64,000 nt of DNA. Source: Vulcanimicrobiales bacterium. Lineage in GTDB: Bacteria > Vulcanimicrobiota > Vulcanimicrobiia > Vulcanimicrobiales > Vulcanimicrobiaceae. Position 1 is the stretch's first letter. The number at the start of each line of letters is the position of its first letter. A program made the position numbers and the translations under genes. The notes under the pieces are model-generated. The model did no database searches, was not told where the DNA came from, and saw only the letters and a list, made by a program, of their open reading frames with translations. The stretch lies in assembly GCA_038215615.1 (NCBI GenBank), contig JBBQQR010000005.1:1-64000 (forward strand), read 5' to 3'. Of the stretch, positions 22,562 through 31,701 are shown piece by piece.

Positions 22562-23605
22562 TTAAGCCTCCACCCGGCGCCATTGCAGCACCGAAAGCGT
22601 GAGATAGACGATGGTAAGTACGCCCAGCATGAGCGCCGAGAATCCAAGCGAGCCGACCGCGGTCTGAAATTCAAACCCCGAACTGCTCGAAACCGAAAAG
22701 GCTCCCCGGAAAGATAGATAGGCGATTGGATCGATGTATGAAAGCGATTGGAAGAGCATGTGAATACTGCGCCCGAGATCGCTTTGACTGCGTGCGGTAG
22801 CCTGTGAGATCGCAGGTATGACGAGGGCTGCGAGCCATCCCAAGCCGCATACCATGCCTAAGCCGCGCTTCAGCGATGCGCTGAATGCGGTCAGGCATGA
22901 GTACCACGCGATCGGGCCGAGCAGCGCGAGTGCCACGAACAGCGGCGTCATGGAATTGGTATAGAATCTGGGCCACACGAACATGGCGCAGATGAGCACG
23001 ATGACGACGAGCGTCGCGAGTTGAGAAACGACAATCGTCAAGACATCCGTGCCGATCGAGGCCAGCGCAAGGCGTTCTCGTGATACCGGTTTGGTCCATG
23101 CGAGCTCCAAATGTCCGTCGTTTTCTTTTGCCAGCACGCCGCCGAGCATCGTGGCCGTGATCAGCGCGTAAAACGAAGCGATTCCGAACAGAATGCCGAC
23201 GGGAATGTTGGCGCCGCTCATGTCTTGCGTTACGATGATGTGCGTCATGCCCGAGCTCCGGTTTTCCGTGATGTTCGAACTTCCCAGCGAAAAATTGTTG
23301 TGGCTCATTTGGTTGTCACTGGGGATCGTCGCGTTCATGTGAAAGTACCCGCTACGCCGGTCGATCACGGCGTGCACCCGCTTGACCGGGTCGACGATTG
23401 TGGTTTCGACAGTACCGTCCGCACGTATCTTTGATGTCACGTGCGCGCTCGGGGACCCCTGCAGCTGGGATGCGACAAACATGGGGCCGTGTTCGGCAAA
23501 AGCCCACAGGCGAAAGATGATCGCGACCGCCAGGAAAATTCCAAGAATAATAGCGATCACGCGCAGCGCGCGAATTCCGCGCAAAACTTCGGCGTAATAA
23601 TACAT
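22562..23605 (-). CDS. ABC-2-type exporter permease, paralog 2
   Basis: Six TM segments, LAKENDGHLELAWTKPVSR motif, extracytoplasmic beta insert. Confidence 0.85.
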   Translation of the reverse strand: MYYYAEVLRGIRALRVIAIILGIFLAVAIIFRLWAFAEHGPMFVASQLQGSPSAHVTSKIRADGTVETTIVDPVKRVHAVIDRRSGYFHMNATIPSDNQMSHNNFSLGSSNITENRSSGMTHIIVTQDMSGANIPVGILFGIASFYALITATMLGGVLAKENDGHLELAWTKPVSRERLALASIGTDVLTIVVSQLATLVVIVLICAMFVWPRFYTNSMTPLFVALALLGPIAWYSCLTAFSASLKRGLGMVCGLGWLAALVIPAISQATARSQSDLGRSIHMLFQSLSYIDPIAYLSFRGAFSVSSSSGFEFQTAVGSLGFSALMLGVLTIVYLTLSVLQWRRVEA

Positions 23606-23609
23606 GGAC

Positions 23610-24644
23610 TTACGCCTCCACCCGGCGCCATTGCAGCACCGAAAGAGAAAGATAGACGACGGTGAGGACGAGCAGCATGCCGGCCGAGACGCCGAGTGGC
23701 CCGAGCGGCGCGTTCTGCATGGCGCTCATTCCGCCCGAACCGTGGAAAGAAAGGTGCACGTATTCTATGGGATCGATGTAGGCGATCGGCTGGAATACCC
23801 AGTGAATCGCGCGGCCGAAATCGCTGCTGCTGCGGGCCGTGCCTTCCGCAATTGCGGGGATGGCGATCGCGGCGAGCCAACCTAAACCGACGACCATGCC
23901 AAGGCCACGTTTGAGTGAAGCGCTGAACGCCGTCAAACATGAGTACCACGCTATCGGACCCAGAAGCGTTATCGCGATCGAAGGCAGCGTCGTCGCATCG
24001 GAATAGAACGTCGGCCAGATAAACATGGCGCAAACGATGAGAACCAGCAGCACGGTCGCAAATTGCGAGACAAGGATCGTCGCGACATCGGTGCCCATCG
24101 TTGCCAGAGCTAAACGTTCACGCGAAACGGGTTTGGTCCAGGCGAGCTCCAGATGCCCGTCATTTTCTTTGGCGAGCACTCCGCCCAGCATCGTGGCCGT
24201 GACCAGCCCGATCACCTCGGCGATGGCAAAGAGTATGGCGACGGGGATGCTTGCGGTCATATCGTGCGTCAGGACGATGTGCGTCATACCGGCCTTTTGA
24301 ACCCGGTCTATGCTCGAATTGCCCAGTGAAAAATGGTTATGGCTCATCGGATCGCCGCTGGGCATCGACGCATCCATATGAAAGAGACGTCCGCGGCGGT
24401 CTATGACGGCGTGAACATTCTTGACCGGATCGTTCACGGTCGTTTCGATCGTGCCGTCGGCAAGCGTTTTGCTGGTCACGTGAGCCGTCGGTGACGACTG
24501 CATGGCTGTAGCCATAGCGGCGGGGTCGTGCTCGCTAAACGCCCACAGGCGGAACAGGATGGCAATCGCTAAGAAGACTCCTAAGATGATTGCGACCACG
24601 CGTAGGGCGCGCATTCCGCGCAAAACTTCTGCGTAGTAGTACAT
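23610..24644 (-). CDS. ABC-2-type exporter permease, paralog 1
   Basis: Same architecture; near-identical termini (MYYYAEVLRG...LQWRRVEA). Confidence 0.85.
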   Translation of the reverse strand: MYYYAEVLRGMRALRVVAIILGVFLAIAILFRLWAFSEHDPAAMATAMQSSPTAHVTSKTLADGTIETTVNDPVKNVHAVIDRRGRLFHMDASMPSGDPMSHNHFSLGNSSIDRVQKAGMTHIVLTHDMTASIPVAILFAIAEVIGLVTATMLGGVLAKENDGHLELAWTKPVSRERLALATMGTDVATILVSQFATVLLVLIVCAMFIWPTFYSDATTLPSIAITLLGPIAWYSCLTAFSASLKRGLGMVVGLGWLAAIAIPAIAEGTARSSSDFGRAIHWVFQPIAYIDPIEYVHLSFHGSGGMSAMQNAPLGPLGVSAGMLLVLTVVYLSLSVLQWRRVEA

Positions 24645-25549
24645 CAGCCGGCTTCCACGACGTCAGCCGTTTGTGACCCCGGCGCGACCGCGTTGAGGAA
24701 GATGTCTTCTAAATTCAAATCGACGATCCGCACGCTCTGCGCGCCCATGGTAGAAAGCGTTTCCGCCAATCCGCCGCCGTCGGCGGTGACCGTCAGCCGG
24801 AGGATCCGGCCGGATTGGTCGAGGCGCTCGATGCGCGAGTCGCGGCGCAAGCCGTCGAGCGCGATCGCCTCCGACGGAAAGATGCCTTCGACGATCTTGC
24901 GATCGGATTTCAGATCATCTACGGCACCGGCGAGAATCACGCGTCCGTTCTGGAGCACCGCGAGATGATCCGCCGCGCGCTCGACCTGTCCGATCTGGTG
25001 AGACGAGAGCACGATCGTGGCGCCTTGCGCGGCGCTTTCAATCATAAGATTTAAGACGGCGCGCTGATTGACCGGGTCGAGGCCGCTGGTCGGTTCGTCC
25101 AGCACCAGCGTTTCCGGATTGATCGCGAATGCCATGACGATCGCCAGCGCGGTACGCATGCCTTTCGACATCGCGCGAACGCGTTTGCGCGGATCCAATT
25201 TGAAAAGATCCATCAGCTGCTTCGCGCGTTTGGGATCGAAACGCTTGAATGTGCGCCGCTGCATCTCCAGATGCTCGGCCCCGTTCATCCACTCGTAGAG
25301 CACGCTGCGTTCGGGCACGTAAGAGATGCTTTCGAAGAGTGCCGGCGTCAGCTCGTTGCCGTCAAAGCGGATCACTCCCGAGGTCGAGCGTGCCAGCCCC
25401 AGAAGGCATTTGAACGTCGTGGTCTTGCCGGCCCCGTTGGGACCGAGCAGGCCGAAGACGGAACCGGTCGGGATCTCGATGGTTACGTCGTCGACGGCCA
25501 GAAAATTTCCGTACGACTTACTCAAATGTTCGATGGAGATGGTGCTCAT
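24644..25549 (-). CDS. ABC exporter ATP-binding protein (YtrB-like)
   Basis: GPNGAGKTT, MSKGM signature, LVLDEPTSGLD, SSH. Confidence 0.95.
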   Translation of the reverse strand: MSTISIEHLSKSYGNFLAVDDVTIEIPTGSVFGLLGPNGAGKTTTFKCLLGLARSTSGVIRFDGNELTPALFESISYVPERSVLYEWMNGAEHLEMQRRTFKRFDPKRAKQLMDLFKLDPRKRVRAMSKGMRTALAIVMAFAINPETLVLDEPTSGLDPVNQRAVLNLMIESAAQGATIVLSSHQIGQVERAADHLAVLQNGRVILAGAVDDLKSDRKIVEGIFPSEAIALDGLRRDSRIERLDQSGRILRLTVTADGGGLAETLSTMGAQSVRIVDLNLEDIFLNAVAPGSQTADVVEAG

Positions 25550-25941
25550 TTTTCCTCCGGAAACCAGCGCGTCAGTGCGGACTCAAAGAGTTCGCGCACG
25601 CCGGCGGCGGGTAAACCTAACGACTTTGCTTCACGGACCGCTTGCGTAACCGCTTCACCCGCGACGTCGGTCGCGGCGCGAGTCTGCTGAGCGACTCCAT
25701 CCGCTCGCACGAACGAGCCGCGCCCTGGCGCCGTCTCGATGACCGCATCATGCTCGAGGTCGCGGTACGCCCGCGCCACCGTGTTCGGATTGACAGTCAG
25801 GTCGACGGCAAGTTGCTTGACCGTTGGCAGCTGCTCGCCGGGAGCGAGGACGCCGAGGGCCACAGAGCGTTTGACTTGCTCGATCAGTTGGAGGTAGATC
25901 GGAACGCCGCTGCGCGGGTCTACCGTGAATACTGCAGGCAT
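25546..25941 (-). CDS. GntR-family regulator, YtrA subfamily
   Basis: PIYLQL..LAPGEQLPTVKQLA..VNPNTVARAY..GRGSFV; short C-domain; precedes an ABC ATPase. Confidence 0.93.
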   Translation of the reverse strand: MPAVFTVDPRSGVPIYLQLIEQVKRSVALGVLAPGEQLPTVKQLAVDLTVNPNTVARAYRDLEHDAVIETAPGRGSFVRADGVAQQTRAATDVAGEAVTQAVREAKSLGLPAAGVRELFESALTRWFPEEK

Positions 25942-25951
25942 GGCCAGCTCC

Positions 25952-26056
25952 TTAGAGCTTCGGACCCCAGCCTAGGAACAAGCTTCCCTGGTTCGAGAGC
26001 GGGAAACTCGGGCTGCGACGCTCGGTCGCTTCTTGGAAGTTGATGGGGAACGTCAT
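25952..26056 (-). CDS. 34-aa peptide, first gene of the ytr-like operon, ending FLGWGPKL (absent from the ORF track)
   Basis: TAAGGAG-aagcgaa-ATG; MTFPINFQEATERRSPSFPLSNQGSLFLGWGPKL*; its stop overlaps the GntR SD (TAAGGAG). Confidence 0.75.
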   Translation of the reverse strand: MTFPINFQEATERRSPSFPLSNQGSLFLGWGPKL

Positions 26057-26087
26057 TTCGCTTCTCCTTAGAGTACCAATACGCTGT

Positions 26088-26132
26088 TGTACTAGTACAC
26101 TAGTATAATAGCACGAAATTCTCCCTCGTCAA
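26088..26132 (-). promoter_or_regulatory. Sigma70 promoter with overlapping palindromic YtrA-type operator
   Basis: Minus strand TTGACG-N16-TATTAT with extended TG. Perfect palindrome TGTACTAGTACA (26088-26099) within TGTACTAG-TACA-CTAGTATA. Confidence 0.7.
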
Positions 26133-26173
26133 CCCCCTCCAACAATTTTTTTTTGGCTCCGCCGAGGCCGCCG

Positions 26174-27547
26174 CTATGCCGGCAGCTTCAGGTATTTCCG
26201 GAAGCGGCTGTCTCCGCGGACGACGTCGAGTCGCACGTCGGGCACCAGCGGAAAGGCGCTGGGCATCTTACGCCAGGCCCGCCCCAGGGTCGCTAGCGCT
26301 TCAGAACGGTTCCCCATGGCGACCAGAACGACGGCCACATCCAACGGATCGGCCTTGCCGATCCCACGGTTCGTCCGGGCGATCGCCAACTGCCGGCGAG
26401 CACTGGGAAGGTCGGCCGAAGCCGCATAAGCGTGCGCGAGAAGCGCCGCCGCCTCCGCTCTGCAGGTTCCGCAGCGTGCCGCATAGTGCTGATAGGCGTT
26501 CTCGGCGGCTCGATAGTTTCCAAGAGCCTCGTATCCCAGCCCCAGCGGCACGTACGCATCAATGCGGCCGGGAGAGAGATCGAGCGCTTCCCGCGCATAG
26601 GCGACTGCCTCGGGATAATGGCGAGAAAGGTAAGCTGCATCTGAAAGCCAGGCCAATGCGGCGACCGAGACCGGATCGAGCTGGGCGGCTTTCTTCAATT
26701 GATAAAAGGCTTCGCGATCTCGACCCTGTTCAAGCAGCGAAGACCCATACCACTGGCGCGCCGACGCATTGCCTGGATCCAATTGCAACGCTTGGCGGAA
26801 CTGCGCGCGCGCAGAAGCGAGCGTCCCTCGTACGTCCTCCGCGATTCCGAGCGCGGCGTGCGCCTCGGCAAGACCCGAATCCAGTTTAAGTGCTCGCCGC
26901 GCAAATTCGCGCCCTAACGCGTACGCTTGCGCCGGCTTGAGCGGCCCGTAAGCGTAATTGCCTTCTATTGCATAGGCTTCCGCGAGGGCGGCATAACCGC
27001 GCGCATTTTTTGGATCGGATCGGATCACCGCGCGAAAATAGCGAATGCTCTTTTGCACGCTTGCTTGCGTGCGCTGCTTCCAATAATATGTCCCCATCGC
27101 GAAGAGACGCTGCCCGTTGGCGCTGAGCCCGTCGGGTACCCGAGCCGAACGAGCGGTTCCGTGCACGAGCGTGAAACTCAATGAGATCGCAAGGGTTGCC
27201 GCCGCCGCTACGTACTGCCATCGGAATGCGAGCAGCTGCCGCGGCGGCGTTTTCGAAACCGCGCCCGAGAAGAGATAGCCGCGCCGCGGAACGGTCTGGA
27301 TGCAATCGATCCAGTATCGGCGCAGAACTTTTCGGAGCACGTAAACATTTTGCGCGAGGTTGCCTTCCTCAACGAACCCCTCCGGCCAAACTGCATCGAG
27401 CAGCTCGCGCTTGGTGATCACCTCGCCGGAATGTTCGGCGAGCGCGAGCAGCGTTCGCACGACCTTCGGGCCGAGCGGCAAAGGACGCTTGCCCACACTG
27501 AGGAGCAAGCGTTCGGAGTCGAGGCGGAATGGCCCTAAGAACAGCAT
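26174..27547 (-). CDS. Winged-helix (CadC/OmpR-type) plus TPR transcriptional regulator
   Basis: GEVITKRELLDAVW..VEEGNLAQNVYVLRK..IQTVPRRGY, a hydrophobic segment, then multiple TPRs. Confidence 0.9.
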   Translation of the reverse strand: MLFLGPFRLDSERLLLSVGKRPLPLGPKVVRTLLALAEHSGEVITKRELLDAVWPEGFVEEGNLAQNVYVLRKVLRRYWIDCIQTVPRRGYLFSGAVSKTPPRQLLAFRWQYVAAAATLAISLSFTLVHGTARSARVPDGLSANGQRLFAMGTYYWKQRTQASVQKSIRYFRAVIRSDPKNARGYAALAEAYAIEGNYAYGPLKPAQAYALGREFARRALKLDSGLAEAHAALGIAEDVRGTLASARAQFRQALQLDPGNASARQWYGSSLLEQGRDREAFYQLKKAAQLDPVSVAALAWLSDAAYLSRHYPEAVAYAREALDLSPGRIDAYVPLGLGYEALGNYRAAENAYQHYAARCGTCRAEAAALLAHAYAASADLPSARRQLAIARTNRGIGKADPLDVAVVLVAMGNRSEALATLGRAWRKMPSAFPLVPDVRLDVVRGDSRFRKYLKLPA

Positions 27548-27560
27548 TTTGATGGCTTTC

Positions 27561-27585
27561 TGAAGACGCTGAAACCGGTTGAAGA
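27561..27585. promoter_or_regulatory. Three TGAA direct repeats between divergent genes (probable wHTH binding site)
   Basis: TGAAGA 27561, TGAAAC 27570, TGAAGA 27580. Confidence 0.45.
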
Positions 27586-27616
27586 TTAATTTAGTAGTTG
27601 AAATGAGGAGTATCCT

Positions 27617-29881
27617 TTGAAGATTTCGTCATGCCTCGCCGCGGGCTTCGCCCTGGCAGCCGTGCTCGTTGCCGGGTCGTCCGCGCGTGCGTCGGTCGTT
27701 GCCACCTTGCAGCTTCCGGCCGTGAAAGCTCCGGCGCCGCCGCCGCTCGATCCGTCCATTCCAATCGCACTTTGGCAAGCCGGCGCCATTCCCCAATCGG
27801 GCGGGTTCGAGGATCTGACAACGCGGACGATAGCCCCGCATGCGACGGACGTGTGGATGATGTACGACGCGCGCAACTTGTACGTGGCCTTTCGCGCCGA
27901 GCAGCGCGGCACGCCAATCACGGCCACGCAAACGACGAACGACGTTGGTTTTGGCAACGATGACTTCGTGGGCGTGGAACTCGACACAAGCGGCTCGGGG
28001 TCTAATGTCTACTTCTTCGAAACGACGCCGCGCGGCGTGCGGTACGAACAAGCCAGTGAAAATTCGCGCTTCCGTCCTGTGTGGCAGTCAGCCGCTGCGA
28101 TAAACGGAGACTCGTGGAGCGCCGTCATGATCATTCCGCTCGATGTGCTGCGCATACGCGGCGGCACGAATCAAACCTGGCGCATCAATTTCATTCGCAA
28201 CGTTGCGGCGCCCGCGGAACACTATACGTGGGCGTACGACGGCGTCATGCAGGACGGCCAGGTAGGCAATCAGTTCCCACTCTTCAGCGACGCGCGCTTT
28301 TGGCCGTCGTGGACCGGCATCACGACCGGCGCGACGGCGGCCGCGCGGCCGAAGCCTCGCGCCGAACTCTACACGCTCGAGACGCTTGGCCGGGACCGCA
28401 AACTCTTTGCGCAAGCCAACGGACAATTTTTGCCCGAAACTGTGCGCGTTGCCGGTCTGGACGTCAGCTATCCCCTCACTAGCACAATCAACTTCGTCGG
28501 CACGGTCAATCCGGACTTTTCAAATGTTGAGATCGATCAGCAAACGATCGCTCCGCAAGAGTTCCGCCGTTTTTTGCAAGAGTACCGGCCATTTTTTTCC
28601 CAAGGCGCCACGTACCTCAATCCTAATCAGGCACCTGCGGGCGGGAACGAGCTCTTTTACTCGCCGTCGGTCGGCCCGTTCGACCGCGGTGAGAAGATTG
28701 AAGGAACGTTCGGCCGCCAGGCTTTCGGCGTGCTGAATTTCCGTGGATTCGATCAGACGACCGGGAACACGTTCGACGACACGGCTTTCGGATACACGCA
28801 CACGCTGCAAGACCGTACGTTTCTGTGGTGGGCCGACGGGGTGATGGCGCATCACAGCATCTTCGGCAACGACACGGCACTCGAGGCGGGCATAAAAGGG
28901 CGCAACCTCAAGAATGGTTTCGTCTACGGCATCAACGACGCCAGCGAGCACGGCTCGTGGGTTCCGGGCGGCGTGGCGCACAGCCTCAATGGGTTTATCG
29001 ATGTACATAAGCCCAATTACGAGGTGAACCTCGACTACAGCGACATCAGCCCCAACTACAACCCGCTAGACGGCATTACCGCAAATTCGGATATCCGCGG
29101 CTTTAATTTCTTCGCAGATGCCGGCGGATCGACCAAGGCGATCAAAAACTTCGTCGTCTTCGTGAACGCCGATCGCTTTTTGGACCGCTCCGGCGCCGTG
29201 CATCAAGCCGACTCAAGTATCTTCCTCAACGCGACGTTCAAGAACGCCTTTTCAATCGGCATAGGCCCGTCGATCGACGAGCTGCGCAGTTACTCGTTTG
29301 TCGACCCGGCCGCTTTTCACACCACCTGCAGCGATCCGAATCTTCCGCGCTCGTACTTCACGGGATTCCCCGGCTATTTCTGCGGACGAACCGATACGTT
29401 TAACCTCGCAACGGTGGCGGTGGGCTACCGCGACGGAACCGCCGCGCCGGTCGACTTCCAGGCGGCTTACGGAAAGTTTGGGTTCGGTTTTGTCGGACCC
29501 AACGACAACGGGCCGGACTATCTGCACATCTACTCGTTCACAACGTCGCGGCCGCTCGGGCGCGTCCTTTCGCTGGGACTCGAGTACGACGGCAGTTTCG
29601 AACGCGCGATGACGACGGGCGCGTTCGATTCGCAATGGCTGCGCCGCGTTTCGCTGGGCGCGCAACTCGGTCCGTATGAAAACTTCACGATCTCGCTGCG
29701 TTCGGTCAGCGGCCGAGGCGGTTTCTCGGCGCCGGGCGTCAATCTGGCGGCGACGTATCATCACCGCTTTCGTAGCGGCGACGAACTATTCTTGAACTTC
29801 GGCACGCCCGCGGCCGCGCGCACGCTCGACCGGTTTGTCGTGAAGTATCTCTTCCGCTTCGGCGGCGACGCCGGAACGTAA
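27617..29881 (+). CDS. Secreted CBM9-like/DUF5916-type protein with probable C-terminal outer-membrane beta-barrel
   Basis: Signal peptide; YDARNLYVAF, DDFVGVELD, WRINFIR, VNPDFSNVEID, EYRPFF; ends FVVKYLFRF; GAGGAG SD. Confidence 0.75.
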   Translation: MKISSCLAAGFALAAVLVAGSSARASVVATLQLPAVKAPAPPPLDPSIPIALWQAGAIPQSGGFEDLTTRTIAPHATDVWMMYDARNLYVAFRAEQRGTPITATQTTNDVGFGNDDFVGVELDTSGSGSNVYFFETTPRGVRYEQASENSRFRPVWQSAAAINGDSWSAVMIIPLDVLRIRGGTNQTWRINFIRNVAAPAEHYTWAYDGVMQDGQVGNQFPLFSDARFWPSWTGITTGATAAARPKPRAELYTLETLGRDRKLFAQANGQFLPETVRVAGLDVSYPLTSTINFVGTVNPDFSNVEIDQQTIAPQEFRRFLQEYRPFFSQGATYLNPNQAPAGGNELFYSPSVGPFDRGEKIEGTFGRQAFGVLNFRGFDQTTGNTFDDTAFGYTHTLQDRTFLWWADGVMAHHSIFGNDTALEAGIKGRNLKNGFVYGINDASEHGSWVPGGVAHSLNGFIDVHKPNYEVNLDYSDISPNYNPLDGITANSDIRGFNFFADAGGSTKAIKNFVVFVNADRFLDRSGAVHQADSSIFLNATFKNAFSIGIGPSIDELRSYSFVDPAAFHTTCSDPNLPRSYFTGFPGYFCGRTDTFNLATVAVGYRDGTAAPVDFQAAYGKFGFGFVGPNDNGPDYLHIYSFTTSRPLGRVLSLGLEYDGSFERAMTTGAFDSQWLRRVSLGAQLGPYENFTISLRSVSGRGGFSAPGVNLAATYHHRFRSGDELFLNFGTPAAARTLDRFVVKYLFRFGGDAGT

Positions 29882-29959
29882 CGCTGCGAGAAAAGTAACA
29901 TTGTGCGCGCGAAACAATTGTCGTATGCGCTCTGTATAAGAACATGTATGATGCGTAGT

Positions 29960-30109
29960 ATGAATACGGATGTGAGAGAACGGCACGAGCCGCTGAGCAC
30001 GCTTGCGTTGCCTGAAAATAGAGAGTCGGAACCAACGATTTTACGCGAACGCGTTACGACAATTCCGACACCCTCAGGCGTTTTTTCGGGCTGGGGCCCT
30101 AAAGCTTAG
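29960..30109 (+). CDS. 49-aa peptide ending FSGWGPKA (alternative in-frame ATGs at 29948 and 29951)
   Basis: MNTDVRERHEPLSTLALPENRESEPTILRERVTTIPTPSGVFSGWGPKA*; TATGAT lies 7 nt before the ATG; C-terminus matches 25952-26056. Confidence 0.6.
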   Translation: MNTDVRERHEPLSTLALPENRESEPTILRERVTTIPTPSGVFSGWGPKA

Positions 30110-30359
30110 ACAGGTCGCGCCAGCCGTAGAAGTGTTCGCGGTAGATAAAACCGTCGATCTCTTCGGTTGTTTCGCAGATGACCTCGGCGCCTAACTTCTC
30201 GTAGAAGCGCCGCGCCTGGGTGTTATCCGACAAAACTCGCAACCACGCAGATTGAAAGCCTTTGGCTCGCAGCGCCGTACTCGCGGCGCGGAGCAGTCTT
30301 TTCCCAAGGCCTTGACCTTGCGCCTCCGGCAGTATGTAAATGGCACCGATCTCGCCGGC
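30099..30359 (-). pseudogene. GNAT acetyltransferase, C-terminal fragment without start codon
   Basis: AGEIGAIYILPEAQGQGLGKRLL...WLRVLSDNTQARRFYEKLG...YGWRDLSKL*; N-terminal half missing. Confidence 0.8.
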
Positions 30360-30375
30360 TCGGCGGATCAGGACT

Positions 30376-31089
30376 TCATTTCGCTCGCTGCCAAACAGTC
30401 GTCTCTGACCGGCCGATCAAACTCGACATCGCGCGCACGACGGCCTCGCAATCGGGCGTGCTTACGATGCAGCGCAGCGTCGCCAGACGCCTTTCCGCGG
30501 TGATGGTGTCTCCCGAACGCGTGAGCGTTTCTGTACCGGTCAGGTCTGTGCCGTTGGCGCCTTCTCCGTTTCGCATCTTCCACTGACAGTGGGCCACGTT
30601 ACCGCTGAGCGTGCACGTGCCGGTGCCGGCCGCGCCGGCTGCGTTCTTGAAAGCGTACTCGAGCGATGAGCCCTCCGCGCTCAGGCGGTACGACCAGCCG
30701 CGACCCTCCCAACGCCCAGCCCATTGCGCGGCGCTTGTTGGAGTGCCCGCGCCTTGACACTTCGCGATCAACTCCTCGTAGTTCGCAACCGCGCCCTCCT
30801 CGTTCTTGAGGTTCTGCTCGTACCATTTTAGGAGCCCCTCGTGCTCCGCAAGATCTTTCTTTGCGGCAGCTTCGGCTTCGCCTGAAAGCACCGCGACGCG
30901 ACTTTGCGCAACCGCTATTTCACTCTTCTCGCGCGCGATCACTTGACGAAGCTTCTTGGCCTTGTCGAACGCAAGGTTGCGGCCCTTGACGTAGGCCGAA
31001 CACGGACCGGCCGATGCCGGCGCAGCGGCAATTGCGAACGTGACTGCAAGGAGACTGACGGACAATAGAACTCGAACTAGGTTTTTCAT
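30376..31089 (-). CDS. Secreted hypothetical protein (Cys-bracketed coiled coil plus beta domain)
   Basis: GGAGG SD before ATG 31089; signal peptide; six Cys. Confidence 0.7.
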   Translation of the reverse strand: MKNLVRVLLSVSLLAVTFAIAAAPASAGPCSAYVKGRNLAFDKAKKLRQVIAREKSEIAVAQSRVAVLSGEAEAAAKKDLAEHEGLLKWYEQNLKNEEGAVANYEELIAKCQGAGTPTSAAQWAGRWEGRGWSYRLSAEGSSLEYAFKNAAGAAGTGTCTLSGNVAHCQWKMRNGEGANGTDLTGTETLTRSGDTITAERRLATLRCIVSTPDCEAVVRAMSSLIGRSETTVWQRAK

Positions 31090-31119
31090 TGGACCTCCGC
31101 CATCAAAGGCGCAAAGCAG

Positions 31120-31701
31120 GTGTCGATCGCTCCCGGCCGCGGAGAACTTCAACATCACGACGCAAACTCCCTAAAGAAGGCAACGCGCCGCGAGCTTGGA
31201 AATCGCGGTGGCGTGAAGCCCGAATATCTCCCGGAGTTAAGCCAAGCGGCTTCCTTCATGCTGCATCGCGCCTCGATCGCAGAAATTATTCGTTCGCTAG
31301 AAGCAGAGCTGCTCACGACATCCGAACCATTCGTTTGGGCCTCGCTCGGGCTGCGCGCCCATGATGACACGATGCCCTCGGAGATTCAATCGGCTTGGAT
31401 TTTTGCGCTCAAAGCCGAAACCTGGTCGGGCGCGCATTATCATCCAAATAGCACCCAGCACATGATCGTTATCAGAGGTCAGGGCCGCTCGAGGATCGCC
31501 GGTTCCGAGCACGAGTTAACAACATTTGATCCTAACGCACCTTCAGACGATCAATGGAGCGTCACGGAGCCGGGCGTCCCCCACGAGTTCTATCCGCTAG
31601 CCGAAGACATGATCGTGATGTCGTTTCACACGGCAAAACCCGCCGAATTGCTAGAAGTTTCTGCGGTATCCGACGTAGCTCGTCATTACGGCGCGTCGTA
31701 A
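31120..31701 (+). CDS. Cupin-fold protein (start uncertain, possibly GTG 31213)
   Basis: HYHPNSTQHMIVIRGQG and PGVPHEF cupin motifs. Confidence 0.7.
   Translation: MSIAPGRGELQHHDANSLKKATRRELGNRGGVKPEYLPELSQAASFMLHRASIAEIIRSLEAELLTTSEPFVWASLGLRAHDDTMPSEIQSAWIFALKAETWSGAHYHPNSTQHMIVIRGQGRSRIAGSEHELTTFDPNAPSDDQWSVTEPGVPHEFYPLAEDMIVMSFHTAKPAELLEVSAVSDVARHYGAS

Follow-up and report, generated by a model that had tools for sequence, protein, structure and literature searches.

Two small genes in a 64,000-nucleotide stretch of a Vulcanimicrobiales genome (assembly GCA_038215615.1, contig JBBQQR010000005.1, class Vulcanimicrobiia; the whole stretch is called the window here) encode peptides of 34 and 49 residues, hereafter copy 1 and copy 2. 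Both belong to a family of 31-56-residue proteins whose shared motif is terminal or internal, and the family is under purifying selection as a protein. A free C-terminus, a downstream gene, the neighboring winged helix-turn-helix protein with tetratricopeptide repeats (wHTH-TPR) and the neighboring operon of a GntR repressor and an ATP-binding cassette (ABC) exporter are each dispensable for the family. We propose, at a probability of roughly 45%, that the peptide is a trans-acting, cytoplasm-facing stress effector common to several envelope-stress regulons, which would dock by its linear motif on one conserved host machine, probably one of membrane protein quality control or export.

Both window copies belong to a class-wide family under purifying selection

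A sequence-only reading of the window had described the two open reading frames (ORFs; Table 1), and its description was accurate with respect to position, strand, length, C-terminal sequence and neighbors, namely GntR, the ABC ATPase, two ABC-2-like permeases, the wHTH-TPR protein and a DUF5916 protein. The copies agree at six of their final eight residues and in where the stop falls, with codons that differ synonymously. A six-frame search of the 2.21 Mb window genome finds GWGPK exactly twice, both times in these ORFs. On residue frequencies, a genome would be expected to contain F-x-G-W-G-P-K-x-stop 0.0003 times. A profile hidden Markov model (HMM) scored copy 1 at E 1.4e-9 within its own genome, and a profile search of this genome found no third convincing copy.

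Copy 1 is the first gene of the GntR-ABC-permease operon, and its orthologues sit directly before gntR. Copy 2 is a truncated member of an extended subfamily in which 11-13 further residues follow the motif. Its start is uncertain, with in-frame ATGs at 29948, 29951 and 29960, and no clear Shine-Dalgarno (SD) sequence precedes it in the window genome; an AGGA SD is present in all three congeners aligned. With its final 11 nt, copy 2 runs over the stop of a convergent GNAT acetyltransferase remnant; the gene is full length in congeners (170-185 aa), and its orthologue in locus L031 is a Pfam GNAT.

Relatives searched for the motif together with its gene context carry homologous small ORFs throughout the class, at a frequency far above chance. 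A strict DNA pattern matched 121 of 251 genomes of the phylum compared to 17 for a reversed control (this tally and those of 186/193, 193/201 and 49/201 below include up to nine unpublished genomes). When the GTDB collection was scanned, at least 119 matches were listed, and the named ones were overwhelmingly from Eremiobacterota/Vulcanimicrobiota. Five of the matches listed were chance-like, and two were true members on short contigs from bins labelled Alphaproteobacteria and Acidobacteriota. The latter bin, G270, was the only one of 151 genomes of its phylum to match, and its contig and L100 may be misbinned. Viral contigs gave no match to the strict pattern.

A looser DNA pattern exposed variants of the motif, and a profile of 141 peptides matched 186 of 193 class genomes, with 1-6 copies each, compared to 2 of 57 genomes outside the class (E 0.004-0.009). 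Among the seven class negatives, the extended form is present in two (G099 and G196) and a variant in one (G231), and contigs break at the site in G029 and G246. Searched by HMM, sets of 1.84 and 5.8 billion proteins gave 111 and 265 hits, respectively; the listed entries were unnamed or hypothetical proteins, nearly all of them family members of 34-59 aa, indicating that family genes are missed or left hypothetical in current annotation. Four longer hits with repeated F-x-G-W within large proteins (P0124, P0176, P0191, P0204) were set aside, and loci judged to be chance matches (L001, L051, L056, L057, L093, L106, L149, L154, L175, L227, L228, L325) were excluded before counting.

The synonymous codon differences had been taken as a sign of selection on the peptide, and pairs of family peptides agree with this in that dN/dS, the ratio of nonsynonymous to synonymous substitution rates, is below 1, including in segments outside the search pattern. 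In 58 disjoint pairs it was 0.055 over the last nine codons, a value that is partly circular because the search pattern fixed these residues, and 0.20 in residues -24 to -16 and 0.37 in residues -15 to -10, which no pattern fixed. The six-frame count, the reversed-pattern control, dN/dS and the expectation of 0.0003 led us to reject a chance match or a DNA repeat. Of ten gntR orthologues anchored on the GntR protein and with intact upstream DNA, eight are preceded by the peptide (L312, L313, L340-L345) and two are not (L304, L305). An SD word stands before the start in 132 of 137 distinct peptides, the start itself having been chosen by SD score.

The family motif, F-x-G-W-G-[PVT]-[KR]-hydrophobic, is wider than GWGPK. 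In 209 distinct peptides, a non-random set that the first searches biased to PK, the position after GWG is P in 183, V in 23 and T in 3, and the next position is K in 147, R in 51 and another residue in 11. Conservation is bipartite: an element R-[ST]-x-hydrophobic-V-x-hydrophobic-P lies ~16-23 residues from the end and is separated from the F-x-G-W-G block by a polar spacer of 5-6 residues. The N-terminus is variable, disordered and rich in Arg, Pro and Thr, with 11% Pro upstream of the motif, while the tail after the motif may be the stop, 1-4 residues, an extension of 11-13 residues or a whole signal-peptide h-region. None of 214 peptides has a transmembrane segment (highest 19-residue hydropathy 0.99; window copies 0.03 and 0.16), and no hydrophobic export leader was seen, the N-termini being hydrophilic. 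AlphaFold2 predicted no fold for the peptide alone (predicted template modelling score 0.13) and no helix in the model.

Copies lie behind the control sites of many regulators

Of the 209 distinct peptides, 29 had too little downstream DNA and 180 could be classified by context: 104 precede gntR, 46 precede another co-oriented gene, 29 face a convergent gene and 1 is unclear. Removing three longer proteins and one mis-call from the convergent group leaves ~25 copies, among them window copy 2. The co-oriented partners include BlaI-M56, PadR-HAAS, an extracytoplasmic function (ECF) sigma factor with its anti-sigma factor, DUF4097-DUF6249, S9 peptidase, glyoxalase, MsrA, VUPS-GGDEF, BTAD/STAND regulators, and a small protein with YcaO. 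The PadR and ECF examples L012 and L116 are from unpublished genomes, and the same contexts were found independently in L183 and L037. PadR-HAAS, Toastrack/DUF4097 and GntR-ABC are described as envelope-stress units (bioRxiv 10.1101/2020.09.24.301986).

The upstream DNA of these copies holds several control words, which were read off the same sequences in which they were counted and, except for the ECF consensus, were assigned to regulators by adjacency. The YtrA-type word GT[AG]CTA[GAC] is present upstream of 125 of 132 GntR-linked copies compared to 5 of 114 other copies (shuffled means 10.0 and 3.5). Among these 114 non-GntR copies, an ECF promoter of the type GAAAC-N16/17-[CT][GT]TA was found at 30 (shuffled mean 0.4), a BlaI-linked palindrome at 10 (0.2), a CGNR-linked word at 10 (0.0) and GGACG repeats at 10 (0.9). 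Other copies follow boxes linked to PadR or to BTAD/STAND regulators, and each copy is the first or sole gene behind its site. Such sites also occur at copies that lack a co-oriented downstream gene (L031, L032, L197, L199, L214, L220, L236, L213, L107), and monocistronic copies retain the motif across four genera (L214, L217, L220, L223). Since control sites of many regulators precede the peptide, monocistronic copies included, these data suggest that the peptide is an output of many regulators and the private partner of no single one.

The same counts bear on a role in cis, in which the motif would stall the ribosome during elongation or termination and tune the next gene, as a portable leader copied before many autoregulated operons. 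Most arrest peptides are upstream ORFs (PMC11890864), a co-oriented gene lies behind 150 of the 180 classified copies, and paralogues resemble the GntR-linked copy of their own lineage. The near-invariant last eight residues, a second element 10-11 residues upstream and a length close to that of one ribosome tunnel would also fit. The sequence-only reading had considered an arrest leader because the stop of copy 1 overlaps the gntR SD; gntR lacks an SD of its own in 49 of 76 loci, and the overlap is not typical, with an own SD in 27 of 76 loci and spacers of 1-34 nt that leave no fixed register. As a general rule this model is not supported: ~25 of 180 copies, in at least 10 contexts, retain both the motif and the control site although the next gene is convergent. 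All three stop codons are used and the stop position varies. No leader-dependent hairpin over the gntR start was found, the unpaired fraction being 0.48 for native and 0.49 for synonymously recoded sequences (n=95, p=0.40). Taken together, we regard action in cis as unlikely.

An RF1-specific termination arrest, suggested at one point by an apparent avoidance of TGA with the strict all-stop pattern (genome background TGA 462/1228), was dropped because variant copies use TGA (15 of 209, in a set for which many loci were drawn by a TAA/TAG-only pattern). ARAGORN found no transfer-messenger RNA in the window genome (G000, a 100%-complete bin), where the gene may be permuted, divergent or unassembled.

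In genus g53 (L008, L009, L061, L062, L133, L143), two family peptides flank a gene for a secreted metallophosphoesterase beside an ABATE-CGNR regulator. The word TTGACA[AG]GTTA with flanking GTAAC/GTTAC, found beside ABATE-zf-CGNR genes (L193, L196, L213, L362, L388, L008), is a candidate operator for this poorly known regulator family.

Extended and fused forms carry the motif internally

The copy-2 subfamily occurs in 49 of 201 class genomes. Of 30 loci returned (L395-L424), three unpublished ones were left out and 27 inspected. In 24 of the 27 the peptide lies beside DUF5916 or wHTH-TPR, and this subfamily-wide adjacency indicates that the two-copy bracket around these genes, to which the sequence-only reading had drawn attention, is an old synteny. 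The ECF -35 word GAAAC[AT] is upstream of 26 of the 27 orthologues. In 23 loci the peptide extends 11-13 residues past the motif and ends in Asn (23/23), while the four short forms are all from the window's genus, where the convergent GNAT gene overlaps the end. The consensus of the extension is approximately V-x-G-x-x-S-hydrophobic-L-[KTV]-[RN]-W-N, and it may act as a further functional element or be set free as a peptide.

The motif also lies within 10 TonB_C proteins, in a long n-region that leads straight into a hydrophobic stretch with an A-x-A site. When TonB_C homologues were sought through the domain alone, all four further ones had F-x-G-W-G-P-[KQ]-L before the signal h-region, and among the 30 best TonB_C loci in genomes the motif is present in seven. 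The n-region of a signal peptide stays in the cytoplasm, so a motif directly before the h-region would lie on the cytoplasmic side. Because the extended copy-2 forms and the TonB_C fusions hold the motif internally, a free C-terminus is dispensable.

The TonB_C-only proteins form a clade of small secreted proteins whose signal n-region of 35-45 residues holds the motif (P0223-P0239, L212, L274-L278, L286), and they often adjoin BTAD or XRE-NB-ARC regulators. Proteins of 200-224 aa with a weak PD-(D/E)XK match carry the motif at their end (L203:2419-3090, L204:2974-3642), and in L207 the motif is in another frame. In G055 and G150, such a PD-(D/E)XK-like protein ending in the motif is the sole form found.

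No neighboring system tracks the peptide

The sequence-only reading had pointed to the neighboring wHTH-TPR protein as a receptor that would bind the peptide by its C-terminus. Of 34 genomes tested, 16 gave no match to the wHTH-TPR protein; 13 of these 16 carry the peptide, including a congener of the window genome, G043, that keeps both copies. It is of the CadC/OmpR type with a hydrophobic stretch, and the motif is internal in the extended and TonB_C forms. The wHTH-TPR protein is thus a syntenic neighbor that the peptide family can do without, and we give its role as receptor almost no credence. A broader version, in which some receptor would sense the peptide itself, or a piece cleaved from it or from a signal peptide, as a class-wide signal, is in our estimation distinctly unlikely. 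Adjacency to TPR-, BTAD- and STAND-type regulators is frequent, the copy-2 subfamily adjoins wHTH-TPR or DUF5916 as described above, an M48-RDD protease gene is often divergent from copy 1, and the extended form could release an 11-13-mer with its invariant terminal Asn. However, the peptides lack a hydrophobic export leader and do not need a free C-terminus, and the motif is invariant class-wide rather than strain-specific. The M48-RDD protease was rejected as an obligatory partner, since it was not found in 10 of 34 genomes, most of them with peptides.

Export by the neighboring ABC transporter had also been suggested. A circuit of this kind is known from Staphylococcus aureus, whose phenol-soluble modulins (PSMs) are encoded at scattered loci, bind to PmtR and leave the cell through the Pmt exporter (PMC5080381). 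By analogy, the peptide would be the cargo of the YtrB-like exporter and the ligand of the YtrA-type GntR, with scattered copies feeding other stress signals into the operon. The gntR-linked context is the commonest one (104 of 180), a GntR orthologue is present in 193 of 201 class genomes, and G077, G055 and G150, which have no GntR orthologue, have neither the operon nor a free peptide, arguing against independence of the two. In contrast, G045 (a single contig, 97% complete) and G119 gave no match to GntR or the ATPase yet have two peptides each, and genus g15 has cleanly lost the peptide but retained the operon, so that export by this transporter is not supported as a general rule. The peptides are Pro/Gly-rich and non-helical, unlike PSMs, and the signal-peptide fusions would be membrane-tethered. 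Prediction of a complex between the GntR dimer and copy 1, with an alignment for each, scored 0.00 in two runs and is evidence neither way. We consider a Pmt-like circuit improbable.

Finally, the peptide could be the precursor or leader of a ribosomally synthesized and post-translationally modified peptide (RiPP), with a maturation enzyme encoded elsewhere, for example YcaO-TfuA thioamidation at the F-x-G-aromatic glycine. The upstream conserved element is leader-like, and in four loci (L048, L059, L237, L243) the peptide is followed by a protein of 102-108 aa and YcaO, with TfuA in L059; for the YcaO of L048 the best-fitting model is that of McrA thioamidation, at a score below its cut-off. 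Against this, YcaO was not found in the window genome and is present in 28 of 121 class genomes, none of the 20 best YcaO loci has the motif within 1.5 kb, and no modifying enzyme recurs in the other contexts. We consider a RiPP very unlikely.

The four peptide-YcaO loci (L048:6053-7837, L059, L237, L243) have GGACG repeats upstream, and three of the four have a divergent BTAD-AAA-TPR regulator. Their 102-108-aa protein has no Pfam match and no clear Atlas match (TM-score under 0.5). These loci are possibly a new cluster for a thioamide RiPP or for protein modification.

A possible stress effector shared by several regulons

None of the TPR protein, the GntR-ABC operon, the M48-RDD protease and YcaO tracks the peptide, which we count in favor of a shared trans-acting effector. 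In this proposal, several stress sensors would each switch on their own copy, and derepression would cause the peptide to be made in quantity; in the window, copy 1 would report the YtrA signal and copy 2 the ECF signal, with frequent translational coupling of gntR to copy 1 as a side effect. The signal-peptide fusions suggest that the peptide would act inside the cell, either in the cytoplasm itself or at the cytoplasmic membrane's inner face. One conserved housekeeping partner, encoded at another locus, would be its target: the first part of the motif might pair with it as a beta-strand, the Phe/Trp part could anchor in a pocket of this partner or at its membrane interface, and the tail would only set membrane affinity. 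The motif resembles a signal-peptide n/h junction and can serve as one, and the modules linked to it are envelope-stress units; based on both, our guess is that the partner belongs to the quality-control or export machinery. FtsH, an intramembrane protease or SecYEG/SecA would be candidates, which the peptide may modulate by mimicking the n/h junction.

Several observations weigh against this proposal. The position of 135 of 250 sampled copies directly before gntR would be simpler under a local role, and the conserved part of ~24 residues with near-fixed spacing, in a total of 31-56 aa, is like that of ribosome-tunnel peptides. The site motifs of BlaI, CGNR and BTAD come from the sequences in which they were counted, with the regulators assigned by adjacency. 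Some downstream genes are not envelope-related (MsrA, glyoxalase, YcaO, GGDEF), and in the window genome itself the BlaI, DUF4097 and S9 genes function with no peptide gene ahead of them. No free copy was found in two of the class negatives, G077 and G055, and the match in G150 is a fusion.

A stronger version appears doubtful to us: that one portable linear-motif microprotein is the class's common stress currency. At least six unrelated sensors, of the one-component and ECF types, would each make a copy, and the motif would also be built into signal peptides; free peptides and the remnants of signal peptides would then converge on a single conserved membrane machine or receptor, so that one response would answer both export load and envelope damage. 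A small stress protein is usually encoded by a single copy under one regulator, whereas here one motif is kept in nearly every genome of a class, reused behind many regulators, and tolerated in free, extended and signal-peptide n-region forms. If there is one target, stress signals would be integrated after transcription, and the motif would name a tunable site on a conserved machine. The family also offers a handle on the role of small genes heading YtrA operons and a compact marker for a mostly uncultured lineage.

Comparison with known small-peptide systems

The family appears to be undescribed, as the sequence-only reading had supposed: no family model, structure or paper was found. The peptides match no curated family in Pfam, NCBIfam, the PDB or Rfam, and nothing in the ESM Atlas, for which only large clusters were searched. 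A full-text literature search for GWGPK, FxGWG, GWGPR, GWGVK, GWGVR, WGPKL and WGPKF, which did not cover subscription journals, returned no paper on the motif as judged by title and abstract, and the papers listed for Eremiobacterota small proteins and Vulcanimicrobium transcriptomes included nothing on the family. The small-ORF catalogues GMSC and sORFdb may hold family sequences as unnamed clusters. The C-termini of apidaecin and drosocin, the ClpX IGF loop, the TatA hinge, the beta-clamp motif and ComX presumably resemble the motif, and none fits the range of variants. In kind, the peptide would probably be a stress-induced small regulatory protein, and a new kind of shared signal integrator appears doubtful.

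The RRNPP systems combine a cytoplasmic XRE-HTH/TPR receptor with a precursor that has a hydrophobic export leader and a C-terminal mature peptide. The window resembles them in having a small peptide gene near a TPR-containing regulator. In contrast, the regulator here is of the OmpR/CadC type with a hydrophobic stretch and does not co-occur with the peptide, which has no export leader and is not strain-specific. The arrest peptide SecM shares with the family a short upstream ORF, C-terminal conservation and a tunnel-like length. The same holds for TnaC and PepNL (PMC11890864). Many family copies, however, have no downstream target, the stop position and codon vary, and there is no RAPP/RAGP-type motif.

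By position, the nearest parallel is YtrG of the Bacillus subtilis ytrGABCDEF operon. Like YtrG, copy 1 and 104 of 180 copies (not copy 2) are small genes heading a YtrA-repressed ABC exporter operon. YtrG is a 45-aa transmembrane protein of partly known function and a functional part of an envelope-stress unit (PMC13729164). It has a single transmembrane helix and is single-copy, whereas the peptides have neither a transmembrane segment nor a fold, share a conserved linear motif, and occur as 1-6 paralogues, including under other regulators, as well as in fused forms; the two are set apart by features and not by alignment. The PSM-PmtR-PmtABCD system is similar in its YtrA-subfamily GntR, its ABC exporter with two permeases and its short peptides from several loci (PMC5080381). 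PSMs are amphipathic helices that depend on Pmt, while here peptide and operon are lost independently. The HAAS-PadR/Toastrack modules linked to the phage shock protein (PSP) response have the same neighbors (PadR-HAAS, DUF4097, ECF sigma, GntR-ABC); no common small peptide is mentioned in the sections consulted (bioRxiv 10.1101/2020.09.24.301986), and the peptide family hardly occurs outside one class.

Neighboring genes and control elements in the window

The features of the window are collected in Table 1. The YtrA-type operator upstream of copy 1 presumably belongs to the neighboring GntR. This GntR and the ATPase score far below the PmtR and PmtA cut-offs, respectively, and two sigma70-type promoters were found compared to 2.6 expected in shuffles of the region. 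The ECF promoter motif of copy 2, for which the sigmaW-like consensus was taken from a published description (PMC5758882), also precedes the ECF sigma and DUF4097 genes of the window genome. Three further DUF5916 paralogues in this genome have no FxGWGP ORF.

Table 1. Peptide genes, control elements and neighboring genes in the window
Feature	Position	Strand	Remarks
Peptide copy 1	25952..26056	-	34 aa, ends SLFLGWGPKL-stop; GntR-linked subfamily
Shine-Dalgarno AAGGAG of copy 1	26064..26069	-	read from sequence
YtrA-type operator (TACTAGTGTACTAGTA + downstream half-site)	26073..26105	-	core GT[AG]CTA[GAC]
Sigma70-type promoter TTGACG-16-TATTAT, TG extension	26105..26132	-	consensus match only
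YtrA-subfamily GntR repressor	25546..25941	-	131 aa; PF00392; PmtR model E 1e-17, below cut-off
ABC exporter ATPase (DrrA/YtrB-like)	24644..25549	-	family-model match
ABC-2-like permease A	23610..24644	-	PF12679 weak, below cut-off
ABC-2-like permease B	22562..23605	-	67% identical to permease A
OmpR/CadC-type wHTH (Trans_reg_C) + TPRs	26174..27547	-	hydrophobic stretch at residues 113-131, before the TPRs
DUF5916 protein	27617..29881	+	start uncertain; syntenic neighbor
SigmaW-like ECF promoter of copy 2	29911..29936	+	GAAAC-N17-TGTA; congeners GAAAC-N16-CGTA
Peptide copy 2	29960..30109	+	49 aa counted from ATG at 29960, ends GVFSGWGPKA-stop; monocistronic
3' remnant of convergent GNAT acetyltransferase gene	30099..30416	-	105-codon stop-to-stop frame; no start giving 60 aa

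Permeases A and B (22562-24644) represent a recent tandem duplication, and many relatives have one long or two shorter permeases. A small sigmaW-like regulon in the window genome (C1:12745-14831, C1:127267, C38:2822) has GAAAC-N17-CGTA in common and comprises the ECF sigma gene, DUF4097-DUF6249 and two membrane-protein genes. Beyond copy 2, positions 30376-31158 on the minus strand encode a secreted-looking protein of 260 aa that has no Pfam match and whose first half resembles a coiled coil.

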